Positions 3,433 to 64,000 are shown, counted from the stretch's first letter. The stretch is 64,000 bases of DNA from a virus (IMGVR_UViG_2974677434_000001:6669-70668), one strand, 5' to 3'. Numbers and translations: made by a program. Notes: generated by a model not told the origin, from the sequence alone.

Positions 3433-3657
3433 TCAGATGTCCAGCACCTCCTTGCGGTAGGCGAAGAAGCGGTCGATGGCCGGGTTGCTCAGCGCCATCC
3501 AGGCGGCGTCGAAGGCCGGGTTAACCCGGTCGTACATCGCGGCACCGCGAGCGCGGGTGGCAGCGTCGATGCCGTTGTCGCGCAGCGCGCGGGCGACCGT
3601 GACGTCGGCCTCCAGCTCGATCAGCCGGTCGAAGGTGGCGGTCTCGGTGGCGGTCAT
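3433..3657 (-). CDS. hypothetical early protein (74 aa), leftward insert in head operon
   Basis: ATG 3657 preceded by GAGGAAGGAC SD and a full promoter cassette. Confidence 0.75.
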   Translation of the reverse strand: MTATETATFDRLIELEADVTVARALRDNGIDAATRARGAAMYDRVNPAFDAAWMALSNPAIDRFFAYRKEVLDI

Positions 3658-3727
3658 GGTGTCCTTCCTCGGCGGGTCCATCCCGCCTCACACCGACTAA
3701 GTTACCTGCCGAAGTCGGGGAAGTCAA
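3658..3727 (-). promoter_or_regulatory. early cassette copy 1: promoter + operator + stem-loop + SD
   Basis: TTGACT(3727-3722)-tccccgacttcggcagg-TAACTT(3704-3699), then GGCGGGATGGACCCGCC hairpin and SD. Confidence 0.85.
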
Positions 3728-3745
3728 GCCCGCGCTCGAAGAAGT

Positions 3746-3767
3746 TTGCACACCCGGTCTCTAGTGT
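3746..3767 (+). promoter_or_regulatory. putative late promoter for major capsid gene
   Basis: TTGCAC-N10-TAGTGT, same geometry as 8918 and 32619. Confidence 0.6.
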
Positions 3768-3856
3768 TCGTCAGCAGAGAAGCCCTCGCCCGCGTTGTGT
3801 ACCGGAGTGCCGATCGCCGCAAGATCAACAGCTTGACCCAGACCGAGGAGATTGCA

Positions 3857-5683
3857 GTGAGCCTGCCTTCCGCCCGCCATCGCCGGGTGAACATCCTTGC
3901 TCGCGCCGTCGGCCAGTTCGCGCACCAGATGCCCGAACAGCTTCCGGAGACCGTCGAGGAGCTGGACGCGCTCCTCAACGCGGCGCGAGCCGAGATCAAC
4001 GTCATTGCCGCGCGGCGTGCCAACGGGGAGACCCTGACGGGCGCTGACCGCGATCGGCTCAAGTCCATCCTGGGCGACATCGACACCCTCACCTCGGCCC
4101 GCGCCGAGGCGGCGACCGCAGCTTCGGCTGGCGAGCCTGCCGACGAGGCCGAGCTGGACGCGCTGCTCGCGCAGGCCCAGGGCGGCACCGAGGGCGGCGA
4201 GGGCCAGCCGGAGGGTGAGCCGGAAGGCCAGCCCGAGGGCGAGCCGGAAGGCGGCAACGAGGGCGGCGAAGGCCAGCCCGAGGGCCAGCCCGCCGGACAG
4301 GTCCAGGAGCCGGTCATGGCCGGAGCGCCGTCCAACGGTGCCCGCCCCGTGACCTTCGCCGGAGCCGGAGCTGGCGGCGTACCGCCCGCAGCGGTGGCGA
4401 CGAAGGCCCCCGGCTGGCAGCTCCACCCCGGCGCTCCCGGCTTCAAGGAGGGCATGGGCAAGGTCGGCTTCAAGGAGATCAGCCTGGCCCTGGAGTCGAT
4501 CCGGCCCGGCAGCCGTGCCGCGATCCGGCCCAATCGTCCGAACAAGACGATGGACGGGCAGGAGTTCGCGCGCCAGGTGGTCTCCACCCTGGAGCGCGAG
4601 GTCGAGGTCGTCGGCGACAGCCACGCGCTCGTCGCCGCGATCACCGAGGCCACGAAGTCGCGCAATCTCGCCGAGCCGACCTTCGACAAGCGGGGTAGCC
4701 TCGTCGCCGCTGGCGGCTGGTGCGCCCCGTCGGAGCAGCTCTACGACTTCTGCGACGTGCCGGACGCCACCGATCTGGTCTCGCTCCCCGAGATCACGAT
4801 CAATCGCGGCGGCATCCGCTGGCCCCGCGAGCCTGACCTGTCGGGCATCTTCGAGGACTTCGAGTGGTTCTTCACCGAGCCGGAGCTGGAGGCGACCGAC
4901 GCCGAAGGCAACCCGACCGCGATCAAGACCTGCGTCGAGGTGCCGTGCCCCGAGGACTTCGATGAAATCCGGCTCAACGCGATGGGCTGGTGCGTCGAGG
5001 CGGGCATCCTCCAGGAGCAGGGCTGGCCGGAGCTGGTCGAGTGGTTCATGCGCTCGCTCACCCAGGAGCACATCCGCGCGCTGAGCCGCCGGACGATCCT
5101 CAACATGGTGGCCGGGTCGGGTGCGCCGATCGTCATCCCGCCGACCAGCACGCTGGGAGCCGCGCCGTCGGTCCTCAACACGCTGGCGCTGATGGCGACG
5201 AACATCCGCCTGAAGCGTGGCCTGGCCCGCAACGCCACGATCGAGGGCGTCGCGCCGTCGTGGTTCCACGAAGTCCTCCGCGCCGACCTCGCCATGCGCG
5301 CGGGCGGTATCGAGGTGTTCGCCATCACCGACGCGCAGATCAACAGCGCGCTGGCGGCTCGCAACATCAGCCTCCAGTTCGTCGGCGACTGGCAGACCCG
5401 CGCCGCTGGCCTGCCCGGCAACCTGGCCACCCTGGTGTGGCCGGAGACCGTGGACGTCCTGCTCTACCCGGCGGGTACCTGGTTCCGCTCGATGTCGAAC
5501 GTCATCGAGCTGGGCGTCATGTACCCCAAGGAGCAGCTCCAGGTGAACCGCTTCACGCGGATGTTCACCGAGGACGCCCTCGCGGTCGGCAAGCGCTGCG
5601 GCGAGTCGGTCGTGGTGCGTATCCCGCTCGACGTGTCCGGCGCGACCGGGCAGCCCGTGCGGGCGACCAACGTCACCCCGTAA
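3857..5683 (+). CDS. major capsid (hexamer-type) protein with N-terminal scaffold-like region
   Basis: GAGGAG SD 6 nt before GTG 3857; helical/acidic N-terminus then capsid-like body (GGWCAPSEQLYD, FTRMFTEDALAV); position after protease. Confidence 0.8.
   Translation: MSLPSARHRRVNILARAVGQFAHQMPEQLPETVEELDALLNAARAEINVIAARRANGETLTGADRDRLKSILGDIDTLTSARAEAATAASAGEPADEAELDALLAQAQGGTEGGEGQPEGEPEGQPEGEPEGGNEGGEGQPEGQPAGQVQEPVMAGAPSNGARPVTFAGAGAGGVPPAAVATKAPGWQLHPGAPGFKEGMGKVGFKEISLALESIRPGSRAAIRPNRPNKTMDGQEFARQVVSTLEREVEVVGDSHALVAAITEATKSRNLAEPTFDKRGSLVAAGGWCAPSEQLYDFCDVPDATDLVSLPEITINRGGIRWPREPDLSGIFEDFEWFFTEPELEATDAEGNPTAIKTCVEVPCPEDFDEIRLNAMGWCVEAGILQEQGWPELVEWFMRSLTQEHIRALSRRTILNMVAGSGAPIVIPPTSTLGAAPSVLNTLALMATNIRLKRGLARNATIEGVAPSWFHEVLRADLAMRAGGIEVFAITDAQINSALAARNISLQFVGDWQTRAAGLPGNLATLVWPETVDVLLYPAGTWFRSMSNVIELGVMYPKEQLQVNRFTRMFTEDALAVGKRCGESVVVRIPLDVSGATGQPVRATNVTP
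4199..4291 (+). repeat. 12-nt tandem repeat encoding E-G-(Q/E)-P
   Basis: GA(A/G)GG(C/T)(C/G)AGCC(G/C) units giving EGQPEGEPEGQPEGEPEG...EGQPEGQP. Confidence 0.8.
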
Positions 5684-5703
5684 GGGCGGCGCGTAGCTGA
5701 GCT

Positions 5704-5764
5704 GAAGGCGGGCGACGTGGACCAGATCATCCCGAGACTGTCCGCGTCGTCCGCCTTCGTTCAT
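5704..5764 (+). terminator. long hairpin (attenuator/terminator) between the two capsid genes
   Basis: 19-bp stem 5704-5722/5740-5758 with two G-U pairs, 17-nt loop, weak T-tract GTTCAT. Confidence 0.6.
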
Positions 5765-5787
5765 CCCCGATCGAGGAAGATGGAGAC

Positions 5788-6564: not shown

Positions 6565-6574
6565 GGAGCAGGAC

Positions 6575-7597: not shown

Positions 7598-7622
7598 TGA
7601 CCAGTAATGTCTCGGCAGTAGG

Positions 7623-9868: not shown

Positions 9869-10351
9869 TCAGCGCCCGCTGGCGCGCATCAGGGCGGCGT
9901 TGTCGGCGCGGTCCTGCTCCATGAGGGCCTCGGCGCTGCCTGCCGCCTTCAGGTGCCCGATGGCGGTGTGGATGTTGCCGGACAGGTTGCCGCCGGTCAC
10001 GTTCATCAGGAAGTGAGCGTGACGCACGACCGCGCCGCGATCGTTGGCGGCGACCGGCATCAGCGCCGCCGCCTGGCGGTCGTGCATCCGGCTGACCGCT
10101 TCGTCCGACATGAAGTAGGGCGACGGCTCCAGGACCAGCCCGCCGTCGGCGGTCGGCGTGCCCTCGGCGAGGATCGCCTCGGCGGCGTCGACATCGGGGC
10201 GCTCGGTGGCCTTGAAGATTCCAAGGCCCTGCTCGGCGATCACGCGGAGCGCGGCGTCGACAAGGCCCTGCTTGCCCAGCGCGAGGTGAAGTCCTCGCAG
10301 GAAGGCGTCGGTCTCCTCGGCGGTCAGCTCGCGGGTGTCGTAGTCGGTCAT
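9869..10351 (-). CDS. hypothetical early protein (160 aa), leftward insert in tail operon
   Basis: ATG 10351 with GAGGAGAGG SD and full promoter cassette. Confidence 0.75.
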   Translation of the reverse strand: MTDYDTRELTAEETDAFLRGLHLALGKQGLVDAALRVIAEQGLGIFKATERPDVDAAEAILAEGTPTADGGLVLEPSPYFMSDEAVSRMHDRQAAALMPVAANDRGAVVRHAHFLMNVTGGNLSGNIHTAIGHLKAAGSAEALMEQDRADNAALMRASGR

Positions 10352-10424
10352 GGTGTCCTCTCCTCGGCGGGACCATCCCGCCTCTGACAAATAGAAAGTT
10401 ACCCGACATCGGCAGGCATGTCAA
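10352..10424 (-). promoter_or_regulatory. early cassette copy 2
   Basis: TTGACA(10424-10419)-tgcctgccgatgtcggg-TAACTT(10401-10396), hairpin GGCGGGATGGTCCCGCC, SD. Confidence 0.85.
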
Positions 10425-12485: not shown

Positions 12486-12546
12486 TTCCCCGCCCCTGTC
12501 GGGTATGCTCGCGCCGGAGACCTACTCACGACCTCGGGAGCAATTC

Positions 12547-30997: not shown

Positions 30998-31209
30998 GCT
31001 CCGCGCGAGCCGTGCCACCCACGACCGGGGCGCATGGCGTGCCAGGCGTCGATGGTCTCGGGCAACCAGCCCTTGTGCTTGCCGACCTCGACGTCGTGGG
31101 GCGGCAGCTCGATGCCGTTGAGATTGCGCACGTTCTTGATGCCGATACGGTGCGCCACGTCGGTGCGCGACAGGTAGCGCTTCACCTCGGGCGGCGCGGC
31201 GGTGGTCAT
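30994..31209 (-). CDS. AlpA/excisionase-like winged-HTH DNA-binding protein
   Basis: YLSRTDVAHRIGI...GWLPETIDAW; GAGGAG SD. Confidence 0.7.
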   Translation of the reverse strand: MTTAAPPEVKRYLSRTDVAHRIGIKNVRNLNGIELPPHDVEVGKHKGWLPETIDAWHAMRPGRGWHGSRGA

Positions 31210-31628
31210 CAGGTACTCCTCTGCTTGGACTTACCCGACATCGTAAGGGTGATAGGGGCGTCGGCGCTAGTCTCGACCGCCGCGCGTCCGGCGACGAGGC
31301 GCTCCCACTCCTTGCCCGGCGACCCGTCCTCGATCACCTCGATGACCAACGGGGTGCCGTGCTCGTCGGCGTGCTTCTCGGCCTCGTCGCAGACGCGCTC
31401 GACCTGGTAGGCGAAGGCGTCGGCCAGCTCCTCGATCATGCCCAGGAGGCCAGGAGGGCAGGCGTCGCGCCCGTTCTCGATGCGCTGGTAGTCGCGGCGG
31501 TCCTTGCCCATCCGGTCGGCCATATCGCGCTGGCTCAGCCCGATGTAGAGCCGCAGCGCGCGGATGTGCTCGCCCAGACCGTGGGTGTAGGTCTCGGGGC
31601 GGCGGGTCGCGGTGGCGGTGTCGGTCAT
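31209..31628 (-). CDS. XRE-family HTH DNA-binding protein
   Basis: LGEHIRALRLYIGLSQRDMADRMGKDRRDYQRIENG; AAGGAG SD before ATG 31628 (GTG 31724 is an alternative start). Confidence 0.8.
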   Translation of the reverse strand: MTDTATATRRPETYTHGLGEHIRALRLYIGLSQRDMADRMGKDRRDYQRIENGRDACPPGLLGMIEELADAFAYQVERVCDEAEKHADEHGTPLVIEVIEDGSPGKEWERLVAGRAAVETSADAPITLTMSGKSKQRST

Positions 31629-31720
31629 GTCGTGCTCCTTCGTGGGGTGGTAAGTGGCGACCACGACGGTCCTCTCGGGGTAGAGGACCATCGTGGCCAG
31701 GGCTAGCAGGTCGGTCTGGT

Positions 31721-32524
31721 TCACCAGCCGAATTTCTTCCGGCAGTCGGGGCCGATGCCCGCCTCGCGGCTGGTCTTGTTGGTCAGCCGGGTGTGGCAGA
31801 CACCGCACTTCTGGACCGCGTGCCCGTAGCGGATGCTCGCGGCGGCGGGGTCGACGGCGATCTGGGCCAGGACCGTGGCGGCAGCCTTGCCGCGCACCGG
31901 CTGCTCCTCGGGGCCGACGATCTGGTTGACGAACACCCGGCCCGCCCAGCGTCCCTCGGTCGGGCGGTCGACCTTGTAGAAGGCCAGATCGTTGCCGACC
32001 GAGGAGTCCTTCAGCTCGACGGCGTAGCGCCCGGCGGGCACCTCGACCGAGGAGTCCTCGCTGCCCTGCTGGACCGAGGCCCGCGTGTCGATCGCCGAGC
32101 CGGGCTGGTCGGCCAGCCAGCCGATCAGCTTCGACGCGCCCTCCTTGGACAGCGGCGCGTAGAGCTTCTCCGCCGACAGCGTGCCGGTGATGTGGGCCGG
32201 GTCGGTGACCATCGCCAGGTGGGCGAGGATCGCGTTGGCGCGCTCGCCGTAGGCGGCACCGCGACCGACGGCGTTGTGGATCGCACGCGACACGGCGGGC
32301 GGCGTCGAGTCGGCCATCGGGTTGACCGCCCAGGTCAGCACCAGCTTGATGACGGCGGCGCGCTCGACGTATCCGGCCTGCGAGCTGTCGGCCCAGCGGC
32401 GGTCGTCCAGCATCGGCATCAGCGCGCGGGTGATCTGCGCATCGGTGGCCGGGCGGACGTCGGCCTGGGTGACCTCGACGCTGTTGTCGAGTCCGGCGAT
32501 CTGGGTCTTGAAGGGGCTTGCCAT
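31721..32524 (-). CDS. hypothetical protein with C-terminal DUF6011-like Cys4 zinc finger
   Basis: KCGVCHTRLTNKTSREAGIGPDC; AGGAG SD and promoter cassette before ATG 32524. Confidence 0.7.
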   Translation of the reverse strand: MASPFKTQIAGLDNSVEVTQADVRPATDAQITRALMPMLDDRRWADSSQAGYVERAAVIKLVLTWAVNPMADSTPPAVSRAIHNAVGRGAAYGERANAILAHLAMVTDPAHITGTLSAEKLYAPLSKEGASKLIGWLADQPGSAIDTRASVQQGSEDSSVEVPAGRYAVELKDSSVGNDLAFYKVDRPTEGRWAGRVFVNQIVGPEEQPVRGKAAATVLAQIAVDPAAASIRYGHAVQKCGVCHTRLTNKTSREAGIGPDCRKKFGW

Positions 32525-32599
32525 GATGTTCTCTCCTGGTCCGGCGGGTCCATCCCGCCTCACATCCACGAAGTTACCCGACATCGGCAGGCTTGTCAA
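32525..32599 (-). promoter_or_regulatory. early cassette copy 3
   Basis: TTGACA(32599-32594)-agcctgccgatgtcggg-TAACTT(32576-32571), hairpin GGCGGGATGGACCCGCC, SD. Confidence 0.85.
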
Positions 32600-38275: not shown

Positions 38276-40038
38276 GCGCTGGCCTCCGGCGCTACCTCGC
38301 GGCGGACCTTGCGGTCGAGCACCCGGCTGACGACGCGGTTGCTGATCTCGTCGGACAGCCGCGCCTTCGTCATGTTGTCCGCGCCGACGATCCCCAGGCC
38401 CCGCGCGTAGTCGAGCTGCTTCTCGCTCGGCGGCTGATTACGCCGCCAGGCGTCCTGCTTCGAGGGGAGGCGCTGGTCGGTCTCCACGATCCAGGTCTCG
38501 GCACCTTCGAGGGCCTGGTCGAGGCTCACGAAGTCCGGCTCGTCCACGATGAACATCCCCGAGCCGGAGGCCCAGCCGCCCACCTTCGTGCGGGTGTTGA
38601 GCTGGCCGATGGCCCAGGTGGTCGAGTAGGGGTCGATCGGGCGGTAGCCGTCCTTCGGGAAGATGAAAACGACCTCGTTGTCCTCCAGCAAGCTGATGAA
38701 CGGCAGGCCCTTGACGGTCTCGCCCCAGGTGACGTCCGACCCGGCCAGCAGGTCGATCGAGACCATATCGACCGGCCCCATACGGACGAGCTTCTCGGCC
38801 TTCTCGACCGGCTCGGGGTCGCCGTCCAGCTCCGCCGCGCACGCTTCGCACTCGCCGCCCGGCTGGATGCGAGCGCCGCAGACCGAGCAGATGGTCAGCT
38901 CGTTGCCGTCCTCGTCCACGTCCTTGGTCTCGGCACCGGGCACCAGTTGGGTCAGGTTGACGAGCTTCATCGTGCGAGCCGACCCGGCGAGGTCGAGCAC
39001 CAGCGCGTCGTCCTTGCCGGGGTGGAGGCGCAGCGAGCGCCCGATCATCTGGCTGTAGAGGTTCTTCGAGCGCGTCGGGCGGGCCAGCACCACGCTGTCG
39101 CACATCGGGAAGTCTGCGCCCTCGGTGAGCACCTGGACCGTGACGAGCGCCTTCGCGTCGCCCTGGCGGTAAGCCTCGTAGAGGGGCTGGCGGTCGGCGT
39201 AACCCAGCTCGCCGGTCACCGCGACGGCGGGGAAGTCGGCGGCGGTCAGGCTCTCGGCGATGTGGTGCGCGGCGTCGACCGAGGCGGCGAAGATGATCGG
39301 CTGGCGGTCAGCGGCGTGGAGCTTGATCGCGTCGACAACGTACTGGGTCGCCGCCTCCATGACCTCGGCCAGCTCCGCCTGGTGGAAGTCGCCCGCGACC
39401 GTGCGGACGTCATCGAGCTTGTCCAGGCCCTTGATCTTCACGGTCAGACCGTGCGGCATGACCAGGTAGCCCTTGCGGATCGCCCAGAGGATGTCCTTCT
39501 CGTAGACGACCTTCTGGATCACGTCGCCGAGGCCGACCTTGCCGCCGCCCTGGCGGCTCATCGTGGCGGTGAAGCCCGCCATCAGCGCGTGGTCGTACCC
39601 GCCCAGCTCGCGGAAGGTCGCATGAAAGCCGTCAGCGCCCGCGTGGTGTACCTCGTCCCAGAGGATGCGACGGCGCGGTCCGAGGGACTCGCGGCGCTTG
39701 GCGGTGGCCAGCGTTTGGAGGGTGGCGACGACGATCGGGGCGCTGTGCTCGTCCTGGTCGGCGCGCACGATGCCGACGTCGCCGCGAGGGATCGAGGGGT
39801 CGACCTCGAAGATCGTCCCGGCCATCTGGTCGACCAGCTCGCCACGGTGCGCGATCATCAGGACGGGATCGCCCTGGTGGTAGCCGTTGACGGCGGTCTT
39901 GCTGATGACGGTCGACTTGCCGGTCCCGGTCGGGAGAACGACACCGACGCGCTGGCTGTCCGGTCCGGCTGCCCAGGCCGACTCGATGGCCTCGACGGCT
40001 TCGAGCTGATACGGGCGGAGGGTGCGGGGCTGGTTCAT
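38272..40038 (-). CDS. superfamily 2 DNA helicase
   Basis: LRPYQ, PTGTGKS, DEVHH, TAT, VLTEGADFP, QMIGRSLR motifs. Confidence 0.93.
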   Translation of the reverse strand: MNQPRTLRPYQLEAVEAIESAWAAGPDSQRVGVVLPTGTGKSTVISKTAVNGYHQGDPVLMIAHRGELVDQMAGTIFEVDPSIPRGDVGIVRADQDEHSAPIVVATLQTLATAKRRESLGPRRRILWDEVHHAGADGFHATFRELGGYDHALMAGFTATMSRQGGGKVGLGDVIQKVVYEKDILWAIRKGYLVMPHGLTVKIKGLDKLDDVRTVAGDFHQAELAEVMEAATQYVVDAIKLHAADRQPIIFAASVDAAHHIAESLTAADFPAVAVTGELGYADRQPLYEAYRQGDAKALVTVQVLTEGADFPMCDSVVLARPTRSKNLYSQMIGRSLRLHPGKDDALVLDLAGSARTMKLVNLTQLVPGAETKDVDEDGNELTICSVCGARIQPGGECEACAAELDGDPEPVEKAEKLVRMGPVDMVSIDLLAGSDVTWGETVKGLPFISLLEDNEVVFIFPKDGYRPIDPYSTTWAIGQLNTRTKVGGWASGSGMFIVDEPDFVSLDQALEGAETWIVETDQRLPSKQDAWRRNQPPSEKQLDYARGLGIVGADNMTKARLSDEISNRVVSRVLDRKVRREVAPEASA

Positions 40039-40104
40039 GGTGTCGGTGTTCCTGCCGGTGCTGGTGCTGGTGAGTGGTGTTGGTAGTGGTGGGCTGGTCG
40101 CTCG

Positions 40105-40160
40105 GGATCGCCGGGCGACCGGCCACCTCTGAAGTTACCCGACTTCGGCGGGCTTGTCTA
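40105..40160 (-). promoter_or_regulatory. early cassette copy 4 (helicase operon)
   Basis: TAGACA(40160-40155)-agcccgccgaagtcggg-TAACTT(40137-40132); hairpin is divergent. Confidence 0.75.
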
Positions 40161-49932: not shown

Positions 49933-50264
49933 CAGCGGACACCCTCGCCCGTGTTGTCGATGACCAGGGCCGAGGACTCGCCGGTCGAGAACCACCAGTT
50001 ACCCGTGTCGCGGTCCAGCCACAGCCCGATCTGGCCGGGCTGGTCCGAGCAGTCCTCCTCGACGCAGGTCGGGATCGCGTCGATGTTGCCGAAGTCGGTC
50101 AGGTTGATGGTCGCCGGGCCAGGTGCCGCGCCGGAGCCGATGTGGGTCTCGGTCTCGTCGGCGTGCGCCTCGCTGATCCAGCCCCCGGCGGGTACGCCGA
50201 TGGCGAGGCCGAGCGCCAGGCCCGTGGCGAAGGCAACGGTCTTGGCGGCGGTGGTTGTTGGCAT
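49932..50264 (-). CDS. secreted or membrane-anchored small protein
   Basis: N-terminal hydrophobic helix ending AHA; PTCVEEDCS motif; AAGGAG SD. Confidence 0.65.
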   Translation of the reverse strand: MPTTTAAKTVAFATGLALGLAIGVPAGGWISEAHADETETHIGSGAAPGPATINLTDFGNIDAIPTCVEEDCSDQPGQIGLWLDRDTGNWWFSTGESSALVIDNTGEGVR

Positions 50265-50353
50265 GATGCTCCTTCTTCGATCCCGGCGGGTCGGTCCCGA
50301 CTGCGGGTTACCAAGGTGTACCCGACGGCGGGTCTCGGTGTCAAGCAGTTCCC

Positions 50354-50680: not shown

Positions 50681-50686
50681 CGGCTC

Positions 50687-50715
50687 AGAGTAGCCCGCCG
50701 AAGTCGGGGAACAAA
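50687..50715 (-). promoter_or_regulatory. operator-containing promoter variant
   Basis: Consensus operator CCCGAC-TTC-GGCGGG next to -10 TACTCT; -35 is poor. Confidence 0.6.
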
Positions 50716-56919: not shown

Positions 56920-57044
56920 CCGCGCCGCGCCCGTTCTCCTGCGCCAGCCAGGCCCACGTCTGGACGGCGATCGTCCTATCGTGCCTGGCCATAGGGCTGG
57001 GCATCGCCAACCTCGGCATCCTGCTGGCGGCGGTGATCGAGTGA
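56916..57044 (+). CDS. small membrane protein (42 aa)
   Basis: ATGA and GTGA overlaps; hydrophobic helix. Confidence 0.55.
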   Translation: MTAPRPFSCASQAHVWTAIVLSCLAIGLGIANLGILLAAVIE

Positions 57045-57592
57045 CCGGGGGCGCAGGCGAGGCCGACTTCCCGACCGAGCGCTGGCAGCCCGACGAGCTG
57101 CTCGTCCCGGCGATCCTGGCCGGGTCGCGCACGACGATGGCCGACCTGTCCGCGCCGGACCGAGCCTGGGTGGTCGCTCACATGAAGCTGGCCGGGTACA
57201 CCGCCGAGCAGACCGCCGACCGCCTGGACTGCTCGGTGCGCTCGGTGCGCTCGGTCTGGTCGGACGCGGGCGTCATCGTGGCGCTCTACCTGACCGAGGC
57301 CGACAACTTCGGCCAGACCTACCGGATGCTCGACGGCGAGCTGCGCCAGATCGTGGTCGCCCTCGGGGAGGCCGAGCGCGACCGCGACCGATACAAGGCC
57401 CAGCTCGACCGGATGCTCGACACGCTGATGACCGACGGGCGGGTGCTGTCCTTCCCGTGCGGATGCCCGCGCACGCGCTACAACACCTACGTCGCGCCCA
57501 AGACCGGCAAGGCCGGATGTCGTGAGCACCGCCGCCAGGCGGTGGCCCGGCACCGAGCGCGACGTCGTGAGCTGAGCACGGCGTCGGCCTAG
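57041..57592 (+). CDS. HTH + coiled coil + Cys/His knuckle protein
   Basis: GYTAEQTADRLDCSVRSV (sigma region 4/LuxR-like HTH); FPCGCPRTRYNTY...GCREH. Confidence 0.7.
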   Translation: MTGGAGEADFPTERWQPDELLVPAILAGSRTTMADLSAPDRAWVVAHMKLAGYTAEQTADRLDCSVRSVRSVWSDAGVIVALYLTEADNFGQTYRMLDGELRQIVVALGEAERDRDRYKAQLDRMLDTLMTDGRVLSFPCGCPRTRYNTYVAPKTGKAGCREHRRQAVARHRARRRELSTASA

Positions 57593-57595
57593 CCT
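57574..57595 (+). promoter_or_regulatory. putative late-class promoter
   Basis: GAGCAC-N10-TAGCCT, ATG 6 nt downstream. Confidence 0.45.
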
Positions 57596-57601
57596 GGAGG
57601 C

Positions 57602-57922
57602 ATGGCCAGACCAGGACGCGCCAAGGGCGTGAGCAGCAGATCGCGCGGCACCCGCGCGTCCGGCACGATCAAGGGCGCTCGCCGGGGCCGGTCGCCCTCG
57701 ATGGCCTTCGGCAAGCGCGGCGGTGGCCACAGCGGCACGACGACGCCCTACGGCAAGGGCACGCCCTCGATCAAGCGCCGCGACGTCTACGACGCGCTCC
57801 GGCGCGAGGGGAAGTCCAAGCGCGTGGCGGCGAAGATCGCCAACGCGGTGGCCAACGGGACCAACGGGCGCGGCATCCGAGGCCCGGCTGGCGGCGGCAA
57901 GCGCCGGAGCCGCAAGGGCTGA
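57602..57922 (+). CDS. very basic Arg/Lys/Gly-rich protein
   Basis: SIKRRDVYDALRREGKSKRVAAKIANA motif with protamine-like flanks. Confidence 0.7.
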   Translation: MARPGRAKGVSSRSRGTRASGTIKGARRGRSPSMAFGKRGGGHSGTTTPYGKGTPSIKRRDVYDALRREGKSKRVAAKIANAVANGTNGRGIRGPAGGGKRRSRKG

Positions 57923-57985
57923 AGGGACCGACTTAGCGGGTGTAATGACCACGGTCATTACCAGCCGCCAGCGGTTACCCTCCAC

Positions 57986-58029
57986 AACGAAAACCGCCCC
58001 GCTGGCGGCGGGGCGGGGCGGTTCTCGAT
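57986..58029 (-). terminator. intrinsic terminator
   Basis: ACCGCCCCGC/GCGGGGCGGT stem with AACGAAA flank; same design as 3382. Confidence 0.8.
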
Positions 58030-58032
58030 TCA

Positions 58033-58233
58033 TCAGGCGATGGGCCTCCCGTTGTGCTCGATGTTGAAGGCGATCGTGTCGGCGAGGTCGGCGCGGGCGG
58101 CTTCTTCGGTGTCGCCGTAACCGAGGGCGGCGGAGCCGCCGGGGCCTCGGAGGGTGGCACGGTAACGGCTGTTCGGAGGGCAGAAGCGATCGAAGTCGAC
58201 TTCGGCGGTCTCGGCAAGCTCGATAGCGGTCAT
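58033..58233 (-). CDS. small protein with HicB-like N-terminal motif
   Basis: LGYGDTEEAARADLADTI; has its own promoter cassette. Confidence 0.6.
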   Translation of the reverse strand: MTAIELAETAEVDFDRFCPPNSRYRATLRGPGGSAALGYGDTEEAARADLADTIAFNIEHNGRPIA

Positions 58234-58260
58234 CTTGAGACTCGATTCTCTATTTAGGTC

Positions 58261-58317
58261 CGGCGGGGCGATCCCGCCTACAAGAGATAACTTACCTGCC
58301 TAAGTCGGGTAAGTCAA
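58261..58317 (-). promoter_or_regulatory. early cassette copy 5
   Basis: TTGACT(58317-58312)-tacccgacttaggcagg-TAAGTT(58294-58289), hairpin GGCGGGATCGCCCCGCC. Confidence 0.85.
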
Positions 58318-58718
58318 GCCGATTGCAGAAGTTCGTAATACTCGCAGGTCAGAGGGTGCTTGTCGAGGTAGTGCGCGCGGCATGATCGGCAATGATCGTC
58401 CGGCCCGTAGGGGTCGAAGTGGATCGAGCCGGGGTCGTCGCGCAGCTCGCACATCCGCCGGTAGCCCTGGCGATGCGAGCACGTCGGGCAATGGGGCCGG
58501 ATGTTGTCGCGGCGGTAGGTGCCGCCCTCCTCGCCGGGGATGATCCGGTCGACGCACATCGTCGCCGTGGAGACCATCGCGCCGCATTCCCAGCAAGGCA
58601 CCTTCTCGCCGTCGCCGCCCCAGGGCGCAGCCGTCGAGACCAGCCACTCGCGCCGGGCGCGCCGGTCGTAGCTCGATCCGCGTTTGTCGTTGCCGGTGAT
58701 CGAGCGCGACAGCCCCAT
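58314..58718 (-). CDS. HNH endonuclease
   Basis: CWEC...VDRIIPGEEGGTYRRDNIRPHCPTC. Confidence 0.8.
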   Translation of the reverse strand: MGLSRSITGNDKRGSSYDRRARREWLVSTAAPWGGDGEKVPCWECGAMVSTATMCVDRIIPGEEGGTYRRDNIRPHCPTCSHRQGYRRMCELRDDPGSIHFDPYGPDDHCRSCRAHYLDKHPLTCEYYELLQSA

Positions 58719-58930
58719 CAGCTCATCCTGCCGCGTCGGCGTGCGCGGGCGTCGATCGACGCGCAGGCGGGCAGATGGTCGCCGTCCTCGGGCGTCCGGC
58801 AGCACGCGCGGAGGTGCGGGCGCTCGGTCTCGGTGCTGGCGGGCTTGCCGCAGATGACGCACGAAGGCCAGCCGAAGCCACCCGAGGGGTCGGCGAAGTA
58901 GCAGCGGTGATCGCCCGCCCACTCGCTCAT
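58718..58930 (-). CDS. small Cys-rich protein
   Basis: Coupled at both ends. Confidence 0.55.
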   Translation of the reverse strand: MSEWAGDHRCYFADPSGGFGWPSCVICGKPASTETERPHLRACCRTPEDGDHLPACASIDARARRRGRMS

Positions 58931-59220
58931 CGGCCCGAGCACCGCCCGCCAGGCGGGCACGATGGGCACCCGTGGCGATCGTGGGCCAGCTCGCGGTCGC
59001 TGATCTCCAGCAGCGTCATGTCGACGCTGAAGCGCGGGTAGCCGGGCCGGTGCTTGGCCTCCGGCGGCGTCCACCCGTGCGGTCGGCGCAGCAGCACCGT
59101 GGTGCGGGCGTGCTCGGCGTCGTTCTCCTCGACGCGGTAGACGTGGCCGGTCGCATAGCCGACGTAGACGATCCCCGGCGGGTAGTGCGGGGCCTGCTCG
59201 GGCATCGCGTGGCGGCTCAT
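58927..59220 (-). CDS. hypothetical protein
   Basis: ATGA overlaps. Confidence 0.6.
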   Translation of the reverse strand: MSRHAMPEQAPHYPPGIVYVGYATGHVYRVEENDAEHARTTVLLRRPHGWTPPEAKHRPGYPRFSVDMTLLEISDRELAHDRHGCPSCPPGGRCSGR

Positions 59221-59489
59221 CGGTCGCACCGCCCTGGGCGGTGGACCAGGAAGCACGCCGAGCAGACCACCTCGTCGGGCCGGACGGTCAGGTCGGCCAG
59301 CGTCAGCGGGTCGGCGCTGTGGCGCTGGGTCGGCCCCTCGGCGGGGTCGTCAACATAGAGACCGTTCTCGTCGGAGTAGGGCCAGCCGTCGGGGTCGGCC
59401 ACGCTCTCGGGGTCGGGCACCGCGCCGCGCTCAGCGCGCCGGAGCTGCTCGGCCTGGTAGCTCATTGCCTGGCTCACCTGGTCGCTCAT
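59217..59489 (-). CDS. DUF4193-like small protein
   Basis: C-terminal PDEVVCSACFLVH. Confidence 0.6.
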   Translation of the reverse strand: MSDQVSQAMSYQAEQLRRAERGAVPDPESVADPDGWPYSDENGLYVDDPAEGPTQRHSADPLTLADLTVRPDEVVCSACFLVHRPGRCDR

Positions 59490-59905
59490 CCGCCCAGCCC
59501 CTTGCGTCGCTCCAGCCGCCGGAGCTGCCGCCCCAGGACCGCGCGCTCGGACTTCTCCTGGGCGCTGAGAACGTGGAAGCCGGGCACCCGGCGGCGGATG
59601 GTCGCCCAGTCGCGCCCGAGGGTCAGGGCGACCGCCCAGTAGCTCGCGCCGTCCTCCAGCATCAGGCGGGCCTTCTCGACCTCCTCGGGCGTCATCGGGG
59701 GCTTGCCGCCGTGCTTCTCGACCAGGCCCTCGTCTACGAGGTAGCGCTGGACCTGGCGGTCGCCGACGCCGAGCGCCTCGGCGATCTGCTTCCTGGTCGC
59801 GCCCTGGCTCCACAGCTCGCGCACCTCGGCCCGGCGGGCGAGCGACTTCGCGCGCTGCGCCTCGCGGGCCTGCGGGCTGAAGCGCGCCGAGGGGTTACCC
59901 GGCAT
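59486..59905 (-). CDS. tandem HTH DNA-binding protein
   Basis: GATRKQIAEALGVGDRQVQRY and GASYWAVALTLGRDWATIRR. Confidence 0.75.
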   Translation of the reverse strand: MPGNPSARFSPQAREAQRAKSLARRAEVRELWSQGATRKQIAEALGVGDRQVQRYLVDEGLVEKHGGKPPMTPEEVEKARLMLEDGASYWAVALTLGRDWATIRRRVPGFHVLSAQEKSERAVLGRQLRRLERRKGLGG

Positions 59906-60287
59906 CGTCGTGTCCTCCTGACGCGCTCGCCTGCCGGACGTCGCCCGCGCCCTCGCGGGAGCACTCCGGCCACAGCTCGCGCAGATTGCACTGGTTGTAG
60001 ACCTGCTCGGACACCTCGACGCTGCCCACCCAGTCGGGGTTATCCAGGTCGGTGATCGTCAGCCGCCACTCGTCGGGGTAGGGGATGAACATCGGCGGCG
60101 TGCCCGGCGAGCAGACCATCGTCGTGCCCGCGCCCGAGCAACTGCCCGGCATCCCAGGGATGAACGTGACCCCGGCGGGTGTGAAGTTCGCGTCGGTGAC
60201 GAGACCGTGCTCGGGCACGGGGCGGCGGTCGTCGCCACACCCGGCGAGCACCAGCGCCGCAGCGGCGGCGATCAGTGCGCGCTTCAT
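59895..60287 (-). CDS. lipoprotein
   Basis: MKRALIAAAAALVLAG-C lipobox. Confidence 0.8.
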   Translation of the reverse strand: MKRALIAAAAALVLAGCGDDRRPVPEHGLVTDANFTPAGVTFIPGMPGSCSGAGTTMVCSPGTPPMFIPYPDEWRLTITDLDNPDWVGSVEVSEQVYNQCNLRELWPECSREGAGDVRQASASGGHDDAG

Positions 60288-60511
60288 CGCTGCGAGTCCA
60301 ACGTCGGCACGCGGACAGGCCCGTGGGTCGGGCAGGCCAGCCGCCCGACCTGATCGCAGGCCCCGCAGACGTGCGCGGTCTCGCGCTCCTCGCGGCGCTT
60401 CTCGATCTCCAGCAGCTCGCCGAGCTTCGAGTCCATGCCCTCCAGCAGGCCGAGGAAGCGGTCCACGGTCTCCTTGATGTTGATGTCCAGCTTAAGCCCA
60501 GGTAGGCCCAT
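60284..60511 (-). CDS. hypothetical protein with coiled coil and CGAC...CPTH knuckle
   Basis: ATGA overlap; coherent ORF. Confidence 0.6.
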   Translation of the reverse strand: MGLPGLKLDINIKETVDRFLGLLEGMDSKLGELLEIEKRREERETAHVCGACDQVGRLACPTHGPVRVPTLDSQR

Positions 60512-60524
60512 TTACTTAGCCCTT

Positions 60525-60773
60525 CTACTTGATGTCAAGACCGGCCCGGCGGAGCTGGGCCAGCGCGTTCTTCAGTCCTCGCCAGTCCGACGGCGTGCCC
60601 GCCAGGCTGCCGATCAATACCCCGGCCTTGTAGACCTTCCAGTGGCCGGTCTTGCTGCGCGACGGGCGCACCTCGCCGCCCGCTTCCTCGATGCGCCGGA
60701 GTAGCTCGCGGACGTCCTTGTGGGTGCCTCGTTTGCCGCCTCCGGTACCGGGCACCGGCCCGCCCCGCGTCAT
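60525..60773 (-). CDS. HicA-like toxin
   Basis: LLRRIEEAGGEV...GHWKV...TPSDWRGLKNALAQLRRAG. Confidence 0.65.
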   Translation of the reverse strand: MTRGGPVPGTGGGKRGTHKDVRELLRRIEEAGGEVRPSRSKTGHWKVYKAGVLIGSLAGTPSDWRGLKNALAQLRRAGLDIK

Positions 60774-60970
60774 CGGGCGCGCTCCGCCAGCCAGGTGGTC
60801 AACTGGCGCACGATCGCACCGACCTGGGAGGCATCGAGCGCCGCCTCCAGGTCGGGCTGATCGAAGGCGGCGAACATCGAGACCCCGACCTCGGCGAGGT
60901 GCGGGTCGGTCTCGATGATCACGCCCGCGCTGTCGGTCGGGTCCGCCGAGGCGTAGGTCTCGCGGATCAT
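60770..60970 (-). CDS. hypothetical protein
   Basis: ATGA overlaps; AGGAGG SD. Confidence 0.65.
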   Translation of the reverse strand: MIRETYASADPTDSAGVIIETDPHLAEVGVSMFAAFDQPDLEAALDASQVGAIVRQLTTWLAERAR

Positions 60971-61233
60971 GCCGCCGCCTCCTGCGCCATCGCCAGGCCC
61001 TTGGCCAGGTGGGCGAAGAAGTGCATCACGTCGCCGTTGCGGAAGTCGATCTTGACCAGCACGGTCTTGATCTGGGCCTGCTCGGCGGGGCTGGCGGACT
61101 TCGCCGCGTCGATCACGACGCCGAGCGGGATCGAGTGATGGCCCCAGAAGCCGTCGGTCTCGATCTCGAAGCGGTGCTCGCGGTCCAGGCCCTTCTCGTC
61201 GGCCAGGGTGTCGATCCAGGTTGAGAACTTCAT
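60967..61233 (-). CDS. hypothetical protein
   Basis: GAGGAG SD and promoter cassette before ATG 61233. Confidence 0.75.
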   Translation of the reverse strand: MKFSTWIDTLADEKGLDREHRFEIETDGFWGHHSIPLGVVIDAAKSASPAEQAQIKTVLVKIDFRNGDVMHFFAHLAKGLAMAQEAAA

Positions 61234-61311
61234 CGGGTGCTCCTCGGGGTCGTGGGCCGGTCGCTCCGGCCTGCTGATATAGAACTTACCCGACAAGGGC
61301 GGGCAAGTCAA
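61234..61311 (-). promoter_or_regulatory. early cassette copy 6
   Basis: TTGACT(61311-61306)-tgcccgcccttgtcggg-TAAGTT(61288-61283), hairpin GGCCGGAGCGACCGGCC. Confidence 0.8.
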
Positions 61312-61555
61312 CATTTCGCGCCCGACGAATAGAACGGGCTTCTCGCCTGCGCAGACGCCGCCGGGGCGGGGCTGCTTCGGCGAGGTATTCGGGCGTCCAG
61401 GACATCACCACGCCCGGCCCGTGGACCGGGTGGTCGACCTCGCGGCGCTCGAAGCGCGTCCTGATCCAGTGGTGGCCCTGGCAGTCCGAGGAGCCGCAGA
61501 CGATCTGGCGGACCGGGCGCGTGCGCCCCGGTAGTGCGCGATGCTTCGCCATCAC
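61286..61555 (-). CDS. hypothetical basic protein
   Basis: GTGA overlap; its TAA stop lies in the -10 of cassette 6. Confidence 0.55.
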   Translation of the reverse strand: MMAKHRALPGRTRPVRQIVCGSSDCQGHHWIRTRFERREVDHPVHGPGVVMSWTPEYLAEAAPPRRRLRRREARSIRRARNVDLPALVG

Positions 61556-61692
61556 TCGCCGCCCAGCTCGGCGGCGCTCGCGCCCTCGCCGGGGATGTAG
61601 GGGTCGGCGATCACGCGGCGCAGCTCGCTGCCGGGGATGCCGGAGTAGTCGACGCCTCCGAGGTACGTCTGGGGTTGATCTTGTTGTGCCAT
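61552..61692 (-). CDS. hypothetical protein (46 aa)
   Basis: AGGAGG SD before ATG 61692. Confidence 0.5.
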   Translation of the reverse strand: MAQQDQPQTYLGGVDYSGIPGSELRRVIADPYIPGEGASAAELGGE

Positions 61693-61786
61693 GATGGCGG
61701 GGCCTCCTGTCGGGGTAGGCGGTTGGGTGGTCGGGGTCGGTGTTGCCCGGCGGGTGTTGACACTCACCCGCCGGGCCTGGGCGAGG

Positions 61787-62164
61787 TTATCGGCCCTGCT
61801 TCACCTCCTCCAGCTCCTCGGCGGTCACGCGGCGGATGGTCCCGCCGACGTAGAACTCGCGGGCCTGGGCGCGGACCTCGGCCTCGGTGCCGGTGAAGGG
61901 CACCTCGCGGGCGGCGGTCTCGATGACCCAGTAGAGGTGGGCGTCGTCCTCGACGTCGACCAGGGTCCAGGAGCCGATCGGGTCGCCGACGGTCAGGCGG
62001 TCGCGGCTCAGCGCGTTGAGCGTGCCCTCGTCGCTTCCCCAGCCCTTGACGAAGGTCTTGCTGGCGGTCGCAATGTCGATCATGCGGGCGCGGGCCTCGC
62101 GGCGGTCGGCGTGGGTCGTGACCTCGGTGCGTCCGTAGAGGTGGACGGTCAGCTTGGCGATCAT
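61787..62164 (-). CDS. hypothetical early protein
   Basis: AAGGAG SD and promoter cassette. Confidence 0.75.
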   Translation of the reverse strand: MIAKLTVHLYGRTEVTTHADRREARARMIDIATASKTFVKGWGSDEGTLNALSRDRLTVGDPIGSWTLVDVEDDAHLYWVIETAAREVPFTGTEAEVRAQAREFYVGGTIRRVTAEELEEVKQGR

Positions 62165-62239
62165 GTCGGTGGTCTCCTTGTCCGGCGGGTCGATCCCGCC
62201 TCTACAAATGAAATTACCCTACTTCGGCAGGCATGTCAA
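62165..62239 (-). promoter_or_regulatory. early cassette copy 7
   Basis: TTGACA(62239-62234)-tgcctgccgaagtaggg-TAATTT(62216-62211), hairpin GGCGGGATCGACCCGCC. Confidence 0.85.
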
Positions 62240-62275
62240 CATCTGGGGCGCGACAAATTGCCGCGCCCCGCGCGC

Positions 62276-62479
62276 CTACCCGCAGAGGCGGGCCTGGCGC
62301 AGGTACTCCCAGCCCTGGGCGATCAGCTCGGCCTGGATCGGCTCGCCCGCGAACAGCGAGGCGCGCTCGGCCATGTCCTCCGCCGCCTGGAGCAGGATCG
62401 CCTTGCGCTCGGCGAGCTGGACGCGCGCCTCGGCGGCGTTGCGGGCGGTGAGCCGGGGGAGGGTGAGGGTTGCGGACAT
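62276..62479 (-). CDS. hypothetical protein
   Basis: AGGAGG SD; preceded by a cassette-type hairpin without promoter. Confidence 0.7.
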   Translation of the reverse strand: MSATLTLPRLTARNAAEARVQLAERKAILLQAAEDMAERASLFAGEPIQAELIAQGWEYLRQARLCG

Positions 62480-62550
62480 GGTGACCTCCTGGGGTCGAGG
62501 GGCGGCGGGACGGTCCCGCCTGCCTGCTGGTTGTGGCCGGGTGGCCCCGG

Positions 62551-62787
62551 TCAGACGATGCTGACCGGGACGGCGACGGCGGCGTCGGTGCGCCAGTTCC
62601 AGATGCGGTCCTTGGCTGCCTTGAGCGCCAGCTCGGCGGAGCCGTGGAAGCTGACGACCGCCCAGCCGATCTCGTCGTCGCTGCGACCGTCGAAGTGAAG
62701 GGCGAGCGCGTGGGTGTACTCGCGGGCCGAGGTGCGGGTGGCGGTGTGGCCCTCGTAGGTGGCGGTGTACTTGATCTTCTTGGCCAT
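62551..62787 (-). CDS. hypothetical early protein
   Basis: GAGGAAGG SD and promoter cassette. Confidence 0.75.
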   Translation of the reverse strand: MAKKIKYTATYEGHTATRTSAREYTHALALHFDGRSDDEIGWAVVSFHGSAELALKAAKDRIWNWRTDAAVAVPVSIV

Positions 62788-62862
62788 GATCTTGGTCCTT
62801 CCTCCGGCGGGTCCGTCCCGCCTCACATGAACTAAGTTACCTGCCGAAGTCGGGGAAGTCAA
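62788..62862 (-). promoter_or_regulatory. early cassette copy 8
   Basis: TTGACT(62862-62857)-tccccgacttcggcagg-TAACTT(62839-62834); this 29-bp core is identical to copy 1. Confidence 0.85.
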
Positions 62863-62904
62863 GCCCCAGACCGAAGTTTCTTCGATCTGGGGCTTGACCT
62901 GCGA

Positions 62905-63423
62905 TTACTCGCCGTAGGGGCCGGTGATCAGTCCGCCCCGTGCGAAGCCGACCCGGCGGGTCGACTCGACCCGGCCATAGTCGCCCATCCGCTCGGCGAC
63001 GGGCGGCTCGACGCCCTCGGGGAGCAGGAAGTCGCCGGGCGTCAGGACGCGCAGCGTCGACCAGTTCGCCTCGCCGATCGTCTGGAGCAGCCCGGCCCAG
63101 TTGAGCCGGTCGCGCGTGGCCTGGCTGCCGGTGACCATCCAGCGCACCGAGCGAGGCCCGACGCGCCAGCCGACGGCGGCGTAGTGATACTCGCGCCCGC
63201 TCATGTACTTGCTGAAGGTCACGAAGGCCGGACCGTCGTCGCCGACGGTCGGCTGCTTCGGCCTGGTGGCCTCCGCCTCGGCGGCTGCCGCTGCTGCCGC
63301 CTGCTGGCGCAGCTCCTCGGCGATCGCGGCGGCGCGGTTGGCCTCCGCCATCAACTGGGCAGCGGTGACCGGGCGGGCCACGCTTCCCTCGGTGCCCTCC
63401 ACGGGCCTGTCATCTTCGGACAC
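62905..63423 (-). CDS. hypothetical protein
   Basis: AAGGAGG SD before GTG. Confidence 0.7.
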   Translation of the reverse strand: MSEDDRPVEGTEGSVARPVTAAQLMAEANRAAAIAEELRQQAAAAAAAEAEATRPKQPTVGDDGPAFVTFSKYMSGREYHYAAVGWRVGPRSVRWMVTGSQATRDRLNWAGLLQTIGEANWSTLRVLTPGDFLLPEGVEPPVAERMGDYGRVESTRRVGFARGGLITGPYGE

Positions 63424-63487
63424 GGGCGTGCCCTCCTTCCTCGGGTGGTTGACCCCGCCGGACGGTCCGGCGGGGCCTCGGGGCGAT

Positions 63488-63817
63488 CTACCGCTCGGTG
63501 CGGATGATCTTCCAGACCAGCTCCACGGTGTCGCCGGTCTGCGAGCTGACGGCTGCCTGGCTCCAGGGCACGCCCTCGGCAGGCTCCAGGGCCATCACGC
63601 GGTCGGCAGCCTCCAGGATGTCGGCGGCGCGGCGCAGGCCCGTGGCGCTGCGGTAGCGGTCGCTGACCAGCCAGTCGGCCTCCTTGCGCATGTAGTCGCG
63701 GAGGGCGACGCGGGCCTCGTCCAGCGACTCGCCGGAGTAGATGCTGACGTGAGCCATTGCGGCATCCTCGTCGGTGCGAGCGCCCTTGCTGTCGCGGGTG
63801 GCGAAGTAGCGGATCAT
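63488..63817 (-). CDS. hypothetical early protein
   Basis: AAGGAGG SD and promoter cassette. Confidence 0.75.
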   Translation of the reverse strand: MIRYFATRDSKGARTDEDAAMAHVSIYSGESLDEARVALRDYMRKEADWLVSDRYRSATGLRRAADILEAADRVMALEPAEGVPWSQAAVSSQTGDTVELVWKIIRTER

Positions 63818-63896
63818 GGTTGCCTCCTTGGGCAGTGGCGGCGGGCCGGTCCCGCCTGACATCCACGAAGTTACCCGCCTAAGTCGGGGAAGTCAA
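63818..63896 (-). promoter_or_regulatory. early cassette copy 9
   Basis: TTGACT(63896-63891)-tccccgacttaggcggg-TAACTT(63873-63868), hairpin GGCGGGACCGGCCCGCC. Confidence 0.85.
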
Positions 63897-63931
63897 GCGA
63901 ATATCCGAAACTATTTTTCTGACCCCAGATG

Positions 63932-64000
63932 TTGACAAGCCTGCCGAAGTCGGGTAACTTCGTATTCAGAGGCGGGACGGACCCGCCGAGGAAGGCAGAC
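63932..64000 (+). promoter_or_regulatory. early cassette copy 10 (rightward, gene starts beyond window)
   Basis: TTGACA(63932-63937)-agcctgccgaagtcggg-TAACTT(63955-63960), hairpin GGCGGGACGGACCCGCC, GAGGAAGG SD. Confidence 0.85.

Follow-up and report, generated by a model that had tools for sequence, protein, structure and literature searches.

Which element is it that recurs in almost the same form before gene after gene of a mycobacteriophage genome, and what could the phage use it for? The question is raised by a stretch of 64,000 nucleotides (IMGVR_UViG_2974677434_000001:6669-70668; in the following, the window), which corresponds to bases 6669-70668 of the 70,668-bp record of a Cluster B mycobacteriophage (Bclasvirinae, Birdsnestvirus-like) with a G + C content of about 70%. 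The element is a module of about 75 bases, consisting of a promoter with a palindrome in its spacer, followed by a leader hairpin, a Shine-Dalgarno (SD) sequence and an ATG, and it starts eleven gene units of the phage. The nearest public relatives are the Mycobacterium phages Zenteno07 (Bclasvirinae; Birdsnestvirus according to its taxonomy line) and Hashim76, with ~84-90% nucleotide identity over most of the genome, and the remoter matches are other Cluster B mycobacteriophages.

An earlier note, made from the window sequence alone, had listed ten copies of a SigA-type promoter that is followed by an SD, and this description could be confirmed. The pattern TWGACW-N17-TAABTT gives exactly ten matches in the window, compared with none in 100 dinucleotide-preserving shuffles, and the −35 hexamers are located where they had been listed (3727, 10424, 32599, 40160, 58317, 61311, 62239, 62862 and 63896 on the minus strand, 63932 on the plus strand). 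An 11th copy lies outside of the window at genome position 216 on the plus strand. The spacer measures 17 bp in every copy, the −35 box is TTGAC(A/T) with the sole exception of TAGACA at 40160, and the −10 box reads TAA(C/G/T)TT. In a weight-matrix scan, the 11 copies scored 43-48 bits and the next best site 29.7 bits, which leaves a gap of 14 bits. By self-comparison, the modules are practically the sole dispersed repeats in the genomes of the phage, Zenteno07 and Hashim76. The identical 29 bp that had been ascribed to copies 1 and 8 (3699-3727 and 62834-62862) are present and belong to 72 bp of 93% identity, and a purine-rich SD followed by an ATG stands behind every copy. With the spacer palindrome and the leader hairpin in common, the copies make up a single coherent SigA-type family, as had been claimed. 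By sequence, the promoter is near the consensus of the strong sigma70-like type (TTGACW-17-TAABTT); the promoters are probably served by the host RNA polymerase and probably early. A look-up of sequencing runs that contain 58000-64000 brought up no RNA runs, only DNA runs from wastewater with small shares.

The same module occurs in phages of the subclusters B1, B5 and B6 with 5-13 copies and is thus not peculiar to the present genome. Zenteno07 has 12 and Hashim76 13 copies, mostly syntenic with the 11 of the phage. A pattern search detected 13 copies in PDRPv (Pegunavirus, B1), 9 in 39HC (Julieunavirus, B6) and 5 in Baee (Acadianvirus, B5), all with the same promoter frame, CCCGAC half-site of the palindrome, hairpin and SD. 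With one module as query, blastn found 387 phage records, mostly of subcluster B1, and a pattern scan of IMG/VR found eight stretches. In Phlyer (Pipefishvirus, B3) and in the Gordonia phage Mariokart, the layout of −10 box, hairpin and SD is kept and the spacer has diverged. In one orthologous pair, hardly any change is seen in the module, while the encoded proteins are 42% identical. From these comparisons, the module is old, lineage-wide and under selection, and it represents a standard expression unit of Cluster B. No description of it could be found in the literature by topic or by motif string, and the novelty for Cluster B phages that the earlier note had supposed is likewise consistent with the literature searched. 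A B1 preprint reports that the right-arm block contains at least ten SigA-like promoters with top scores and mentions no operator, hairpin or exchange.

Positions 9-23 of the 29-mer are occupied by a 15-bp pseudo-palindrome (CCCGAC-N3-GNCNGG), whose half-sites CCCGAC and CC(T/C)GCC are separated by 3 bp. The CCCGAC half faces the −35 box in five of the 11 copies and the −10 box in six. Among 61 copies from six genomes, both orientations are present in each genome; folding gives the half-site consensus C-C-(C/T)-G-(A/C)-C, and 52 of the 122 halves are CCCGAC. Orthologous copies differ in the orientation of the core among the three close relatives; at 58317, for example, the core is flipped in Zenteno07 (64627) and Hashim76 (65018) and the flanks are kept. 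Furthermore, the core is conserved across genera whose other non-coding DNA cannot be aligned. The palindrome is dyad-symmetric, overlaps the core promoter and is conserved independently of the −35 and −10 boxes, as is characteristic of a repressor operator. As RNA, the core folds weakly and depending on its orientation (−0.6 to −7 kcal/mol). This suggests that it is recognised as double-stranded DNA, and a role as RNA hairpin or terminator was rejected on these grounds. Exact operator sequences outside of the 11 promoters are rare, and those found are located at 50694-50708 and 12489-12503. The former could belong to a leaderless promoter of the long leftward replication operon, at whose head it lies.

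The hairpin that had been reported behind most of the promoters is present in exact form in eight of the ten copies of the window, as a variant at 61311 and replaced by another hairpin at 40160. The pattern AGGCGGGA-N4-CCCGCC has exactly nine matches in the window, eight of them 9-12 nt behind a promoter copy. At 61311 the stem is a compensated variant (GGCCGG/CCGGCC), and at 40160 the hairpin is a different and stronger one (−21.1 kcal/mol, z −3.2). A promoter-less exact hairpin with SD (62504-62521) lies between two genes of the module 8 unit, ahead of the second one (ATG 62479). Among 50 copies from the six genomes, the hairpin, of the form GGCGGG-N5-CCCGCC, starts 10-13 nt past the −10 box in 49, has a loop of 5 nt in 42 and the stem GGCGGG/CCCGCC in 41, and the start codon follows 13-29 nt past the stem in nearly all copies. 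Transcription usually starts 6-8 nt after the −10 box at sigma70-type promoters, which places the hairpin 3-7 nt from the 5′ end of the RNA. No T-run is found behind it, and a terminator scan of 57500-64000 resulted only in the separate element at 57994-58016. Due to its location inside the transcript just past the predicted start and the missing U-tract, the hairpin is regarded as a 5′ leader element and not as a terminator of the kind known from the promoter-early stem-loop (PeSL) cassettes of T4-type phages, with which the earlier note had compared the copies.

That the hairpin acts as a paired structure is indicated by a pairing test with 53 leaders, in which 96.3% of the cells were paired, compared with 36-54% with a slid partner. 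Three stem pairs are changed on both sides, and the observed values were reached in 0 of 500 shuffles. The loop is free in sequence (ATGGA, ACGGA, ACCGG, ATCGC, AGA and others) and 3-6 nt long. In the helicase promoters of the phage and of Baee, this position is taken by unrelated hairpins, and Mariokart has the variant GGCCGGG/CCCGGCC. The free loops, the symmetric double changes, the unrelated replacement hairpins and the Mariokart variant favour a hairpin over a site in double-stranded DNA.

Among the DNA-binding proteins encoded in the window, the best candidate for binding the spacer palindrome is a protein with an XRE-type helix-turn-helix (HTH), whose gene sits behind module 3, so that the protein would regulate itself. 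Homologues are encoded at the syntenic place in all five relatives examined. According to an alignment, the predicted recognition helix reads (K/F/M)DRRDYQ(R/H)IE in six genomes with a CCCGAC-N3-GNCGGG operator and is altered in Phlyer and Mariokart, whose spacers differ; this link between helix and operator is suggestive only. An HTH_23 protein (59486-59905) was rejected as common regulator, as it is absent from the B1, B3, B5 and B6 relatives.

The best explanation, which is considered reasonably probable, is a standard gene-start module that combines a SigA promoter, a repressor operator and a 5′ hairpin and at which recombination occasionally takes place. The near-consensus promoter would let the unmodified RNA polymerase of the host start transcription, and the units would most likely be expressed from the start of the infection. 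The 15-bp palindrome would serve as operator for a dimeric DNA-binding protein of the phage, most likely the XRE-type protein, which would then also regulate itself; binding would block access to the promoter, and all units would be shut off or tuned jointly. In the transcript, the 6-bp G + C hairpin with its 5-nt loop would stand close to the predicted 5′ end, with an unstructured SD after it. 5′-terminal stem-loops protect against 5′-end-dependent RNases; shielding of the 5′ end from such enzymes is the most likely function of the hairpin, which most likely also insulates the ribosome site from the cargo. The 30-75 bp that the modules share, and some of the terminators as well, would let ordinary homologous recombination occasionally exchange, insert or delete small genes.

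The shuffling of genes at the repeats, which the earlier note had inferred, was followed in the three close relatives. Chained pairwise alignments revealed ~34 distinct structural differences, five of which touch a module; this is a raw count only, with rough gene calls that score 19% of the genome as "intergenic". Two of the five look like a moron-type movement, i.e., of a whole module together with its gene. After the terminase gene, Zenteno07 and Hashim76 carry a module with genes 9-10, where the phage has an unrelated leftward open reading frame (ORF), and the boundary lies ~20 bp upstream of the −35 box. The other is a 227-bp insertion in Hashim76, consisting of a module and a 48-aa ORF (gene 84), which is absent in the phage and in Zenteno07.

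In the remaining three, a resident module looks like the place of exchange. Behind module 1, the slot is occupied by one ORF in the phage and Hashim76 and by an unrelated ORFan in Zenteno07 (gene 16). This case is the most informative one. The gene-16 and gene-88 units of Zenteno07 are 54 kb apart and have unrelated ORFs, which are flanked in both units by the same leader of 56 bp and the same terminator of 38 bp (100% identity between the loci in each case); in the phage and in Hashim76, leader and terminator of the gene-16 slot are different ones. These flanks thus place the crossovers within the shared −10/leader region and within the shared terminator tail. In a further case, the phage and Zenteno07 have the order promoter-hairpin-SD-gene-hairpin-SD-gene and Hashim76 only promoter-hairpin-SD-gene. 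The one hairpin of Hashim76 is a hybrid, the stretch between the two hairpins is missing and the alignments overlap by 17-18 bp. In Hashim76, finally, the hairpin of the leftmost module is followed immediately by 422 additional bases, by which an N-terminal domain is added to the first gene. Three junctions in the three relatives cross over inside the module or terminator, as the shuffling proposal would have it; two of the few module-linked differences are moron-like. With few clean junctions, the support for a shuffling role is real but limited, and the modules are not the main source of mosaicism.

Gene 101 of Hashim76 (69309-70043; L012:19309-20043) is a fusion of ~135 extra N-terminal residues with a homologue of the 109-aa first gene product of the phage, and the extra residues resemble small "MA..TYTAT..TRTS" proteins encoded behind other modules.

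Several points weigh against the module as a repressible standard gene start with occasional exchange. The covariation of the hairpin is thin and its stem nearly invariant, so that the cause could instead be recognition of the stem by its sequence, or gene conversion that homogenises the copies. The operator is consistently asymmetric (CCCGAC vs. CCTGCC), which is not predicted by a simple homodimer, and the suggestive link to the recognition helix comes from few, related lineages, with Phlyer keeping one CCGAC half-site. The two rightward copies point toward the gene for terminase, and such a gene is not typically early. In addition, only five of the structural differences counted touch a module, and most mosaic boundaries are located elsewhere.

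In a rival explanation, the hairpin would be the binding site of a phage or host factor, namely an RNA translational operator or a boxB-like loading site for antitermination, or else a second DNA operator. The stem is near-invariant over four genera (41 of 50 copies), beyond what base-pairing needs, the hairpin occurs also promoter-less between genes and in a decayed copy, and its position between promoter and first gene resembles that of a nut site. However, its free loop sequence and loop length of 3-6 nt speak against a protein that reads the loop and also against a dimer site on the DNA, whose spacing would be fixed, the symmetric double changes keep the pairing, and unrelated hairpins substitute at the helicase promoters, and a factor-binding site is held to be unlikely. 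The same low probability is given to ordinary moron-type promoters that were spread by duplication, with spacer and hairpin maintained by descent and gene conversion and with incidental exchanges. This would suit the movement of a whole module with its gene to a target without resident module (Hashim76 gene 84; genes 9-10 of Zenteno07 and Hashim76), the mosaic boundaries being mostly elsewhere, and unit 5, which is a textbook promoter-gene-terminator moron. Neutral descent, however, predicts no palindrome that survives inversion, whereas the spacer core is conserved between genera, dyad-symmetric and kept on flipping.

Two further explanations assign a more active part to recombination. In an integron-like cassette system without integrase, which seems quite improbable, the promoter-operator-hairpin "socket" and some terminators would be kept uniform by gene conversion and the core would flip by template switching, while the recombination functions of the phage would excise, circularise and re-insert ORFans at appreciable frequency within and between co-infecting phages. 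Very improbable is an active recombination or mobility system, such as a hairpin/cruciform nuclease or a resolvase, that targets palindrome and hairpin, with mobile mini-circle cassettes as proposed for PeSLs. One crossover does lie inside the hairpin and others inside the −10/leader region and the terminator, the core inverts between orthologues, and a RuvC-like resolvase, an HNH endonuclease and an exonuclease are encoded according to the annotation of relatives. Against such a system, the phage has no integrase or dedicated recombinase, the crossover tracts of 14-56 bp identity correspond to the generic requirement of phage homologous recombination, and the events are few.

The standard gene-start module with operator and 5′ hairpin remains the preferred explanation, and it would be of use beyond the present phage. 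Few groups of sequenced mycobacteriophages are as large as Cluster B, in which the B1 genomes number in the hundreds, and essentially nothing could be found in the literature on the control of transcription in its lytic phages. A precisely defined module before 5-13 gene units per genome would provide a concrete regulon with one or two candidate regulators. For mycobacterial genetics, the modules could furthermore supply promoter-leader parts that are compact and probably both strong and repressible. Beside the T4-type PeSLs, they would be a second, independent example in which regulatory repeats also serve as points for the exchange of small accessory genes, and this role, if confirmed, bears on the origin of phage mosaicism.

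The coordinates of the ten modules of the window, the candidate regulator and the related elements are listed in Table 1.

Table 1. Modules and related elements; positions refer to the window, except for the last row.
Feature	Position	Strand	Components and cargo
Module 1	3655..3727	−	Promoter 3699-3727, hairpin 3671-3688, SD, ATG 3657; 74-aa ORFan 3433-3657
Module 2	10349..10424	−	Promoter 10396-10424, hairpin 10366-10383, ATG 10351; 160-aa gene 9869-10351, antisense in virion block
Module 3	32522..32599	−	Promoter 32571-32599, hairpin 32543-32560, ATG 32524
Module 4	40036..40160	−	Weaker −35 TAGACA, same operator, longer different hairpin; helicase/exonuclease genes, ATG 40038
Module 5 (complete unit)	57994..58317	−	Promoter 58289-58317, hairpin 58262-58279, 66-aa ORF 58033-58233, intrinsic terminator with T-run 57994-58016
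Module 6	61231..61311	−	Promoter 61283-61311, hairpin 61255-61272 (GGCCGG/CCGGCC), ATG 61233
Module 7	62162..62239	−	Promoter 62211-62239, hairpin 62184-62201, ATG 62164
Module 8	62476..62862	−	Promoter 62834-62862, hairpin 62806-62823, 78-aa gene 62551-62787
Module 9	63815..63896	−	Promoter 63868-63896, hairpin 63840-63857, ATG 63817; leftward half of divergent pair
Module 10	63932..64000	+	Promoter 63932-63960, hairpin 63970-63987; ATG is the first base past the window = genome base 1 (gene 1)
Decayed copy	50262..50344	−	TTGACA, 18-bp spacer, damaged operator, poor −10, hairpin 50285-50302 with one mismatch, SD, ATG 50264
Operator + −10 only	50678-50720	−	Exact operator 50694-50708, TACTCT next, ATG 7 nt on; no good −35, no hairpin
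Operator-like dyad CCCGCCCCTGTCGGG	12489-12509	+	TATGCT directly after; gap before tail-chaperone genes, on late-gene strand
XRE-type HTH protein	31209..31664	−	151 aa; best candidate binder of the spacer palindrome
Shared flanks in Zenteno07	L009:10371-10408, 10613-10668 vs. 64296-64333, 64551-64606 (L010)		100% identity

Two rightward units lie where the genome conventionally starts, and five module units of small genes are located at the right end. When first-gene products were compared with all public phages, those tested proved to be confined to the nearest relatives. The 74-aa ORFan of module 1, which is encoded antisense within the rightward virion gene block, was found only in Hashim76 among 50,697 phage records. 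Together with the 78-aa ORF of module 8 and the gene-16 ORF of Zenteno07 it belongs to the lineage-restricted ORFans.

The operon of module 3 encodes a DUF6011 protein, the XRE-type HTH protein (31209-31664) and a small AlpA-like protein (30994-31209) opposite to the lysis genes, and it is conserved with its leader in Baee (B5) and Mariokart. In its first gene (31721-32524, minus strand), DUF6011 is located at the C-terminus, and the adjacency to the XRE-type gene is kept in both of these phages. The helicase operon has a 122-nt leader, in which the strong hairpin is followed by a long C/A-rich tract (40039-40131, minus strand), and a similar CA-rich leader is present at the orthologous promoter of PDRPv.

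An upstream terminator hairpin was considered as a part of the module and rejected, as it is strong at only two of the 11 copies. These hairpins of −34 and −33 kcal/mol (62240-62275 and 62863-62895, minus strand) lie directly upstream of the −35 boxes of modules 7 and 8 and may end the preceding unit; the other modules are without them. Between the −35 boxes of the divergent modules 9 and 10 (63868-63960) there are only 35 AT-rich bp. The rightward module 10 reads over the end of the record and on into gene 1, in agreement with circular permutation of the genome.

In the rightward operon, two proteins (53330-54259 and 56981-57592, plus strand) weakly match models of sigma-factor region 4 and of extracytoplasmic function (ECF) sigma factors, with E = 1.7e-5 and 3.6e-4, respectively, both slightly under the Pfam cut-offs. 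Both could be factors by which the phage serves a second class of promoters at a later stage.

Several known systems of mycobacteriophages resemble the module in part. The stoperators of Cluster A mycobacteriophages (L5 gp71, Bxb1 gp69; PMC3029335) are likewise many copies of one repressor-binding site over the genome by which one protein exerts control. In contrast to the module site, which is dyad-symmetric, lies within promoters in either orientation and belongs to a phage without integrase, they are 13-bp asymmetric sites that are oriented with transcription and act on elongation in lysogens of temperate phages. Cluster O phages have 8-9 strong SigA-like promoters and more than 30 copies of TGTTCGG-N3-CCGAACA (Cresawn et al., 2015, PMC4351075). 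Common to both systems are several strong predicted SigA-like promoters, one of them for a leftward gene inside the structural operon, and a short dyad that is centred on 3 bp and for which orientation does not matter, and a single-gene indel in Cluster O is flanked by a short direct repeat. The Cluster O palindrome, however, is dispersed and located outside of the promoter spacer, no common leader hairpin is reported and the sequences differ.

The start-associated sequences (SAS) and extended SAS (ESAS) of Cluster K mycobacteriophages (Pope et al., 2011, PMC3203893) are cluster-wide repeats just upstream of the start codons of non-structural genes, stand before differing gene families and contain an inverted-repeat element that is thought to be bound by a protein. 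SAS is a 13-bp asymmetric sequence that overlaps the ribosome-binding site and ESAS a 17-bp inverted repeat without support for RNA pairing; neither includes a promoter, and the sequences are unrelated to the module. The 13-bp motif GGGATAGGAGCCC, found in Cluster K 3-7 bp before the start codon, is absent from the leaders read, and the SD regions of the modules vary (GAGGAAGGA, CAAGGAG and others). None of these features of Clusters K, O and A combines promoter, spacer operator and leader hairpin.

Morons are promoter-gene-terminator insertions in lambdoid and other phages (PMC3029335, PMC2839356). Unit 5, the gene-16 slot and Hashim76 gene 84 resemble them, as each is a single small gene that has a promoter of its own and is inserted between adjoining operons or against them, and the former two also have their own terminator. 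As expected of a moron, gene 84 with its promoter (227 bp) is absent from the corresponding place in the phage and in Zenteno07. The concept of the moron does not include one standardised promoter-operator-leader in all units, as found here, which implies a common regulation and provides homology for exchange.

The PeSL cassettes of the T4-type phages RB49 and phi1 (Arbiol et al., 2010, PMC2839356; Comeau et al., 2014, PMC4122927) are intergenic composites of ~100 bp with a strong promoter of the host type, a G + C stem-loop and an SD. The composite of the module is similar, with a promoter that is near-consensus by sequence, many of the repeats in both systems stand before small lineage-restricted ORFs, and some insertions, deletions and replacements among the relatives cross over inside the cassettes, stem-loop included. 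To this extent the analogy drawn in the earlier note holds, although the association is weaker here, with 5 of ~34 differences bounded by or touching a cassette compared with 10 of 14 between RB49 and phi1 (PMC2839356). It fails at the stem-loop, which in PeSLs is a terminator or attenuator at variable positions and here a 5′ leader element at a fixed place in the transcript, without U-tract; the terminator of the module unit, where present, is separate and follows the gene. Furthermore, the spacer of the module is filled by a conserved palindrome, an AT-rich upstream block is lacking, copies also serve antisense genes of the virion block and the replication operon, and the host and phage lineage is unrelated. 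The PeSL cassettes are nevertheless the closest functional analogue, and the module is PeSL-like in some respects, apart from the terminator stem-loop as one defining feature.

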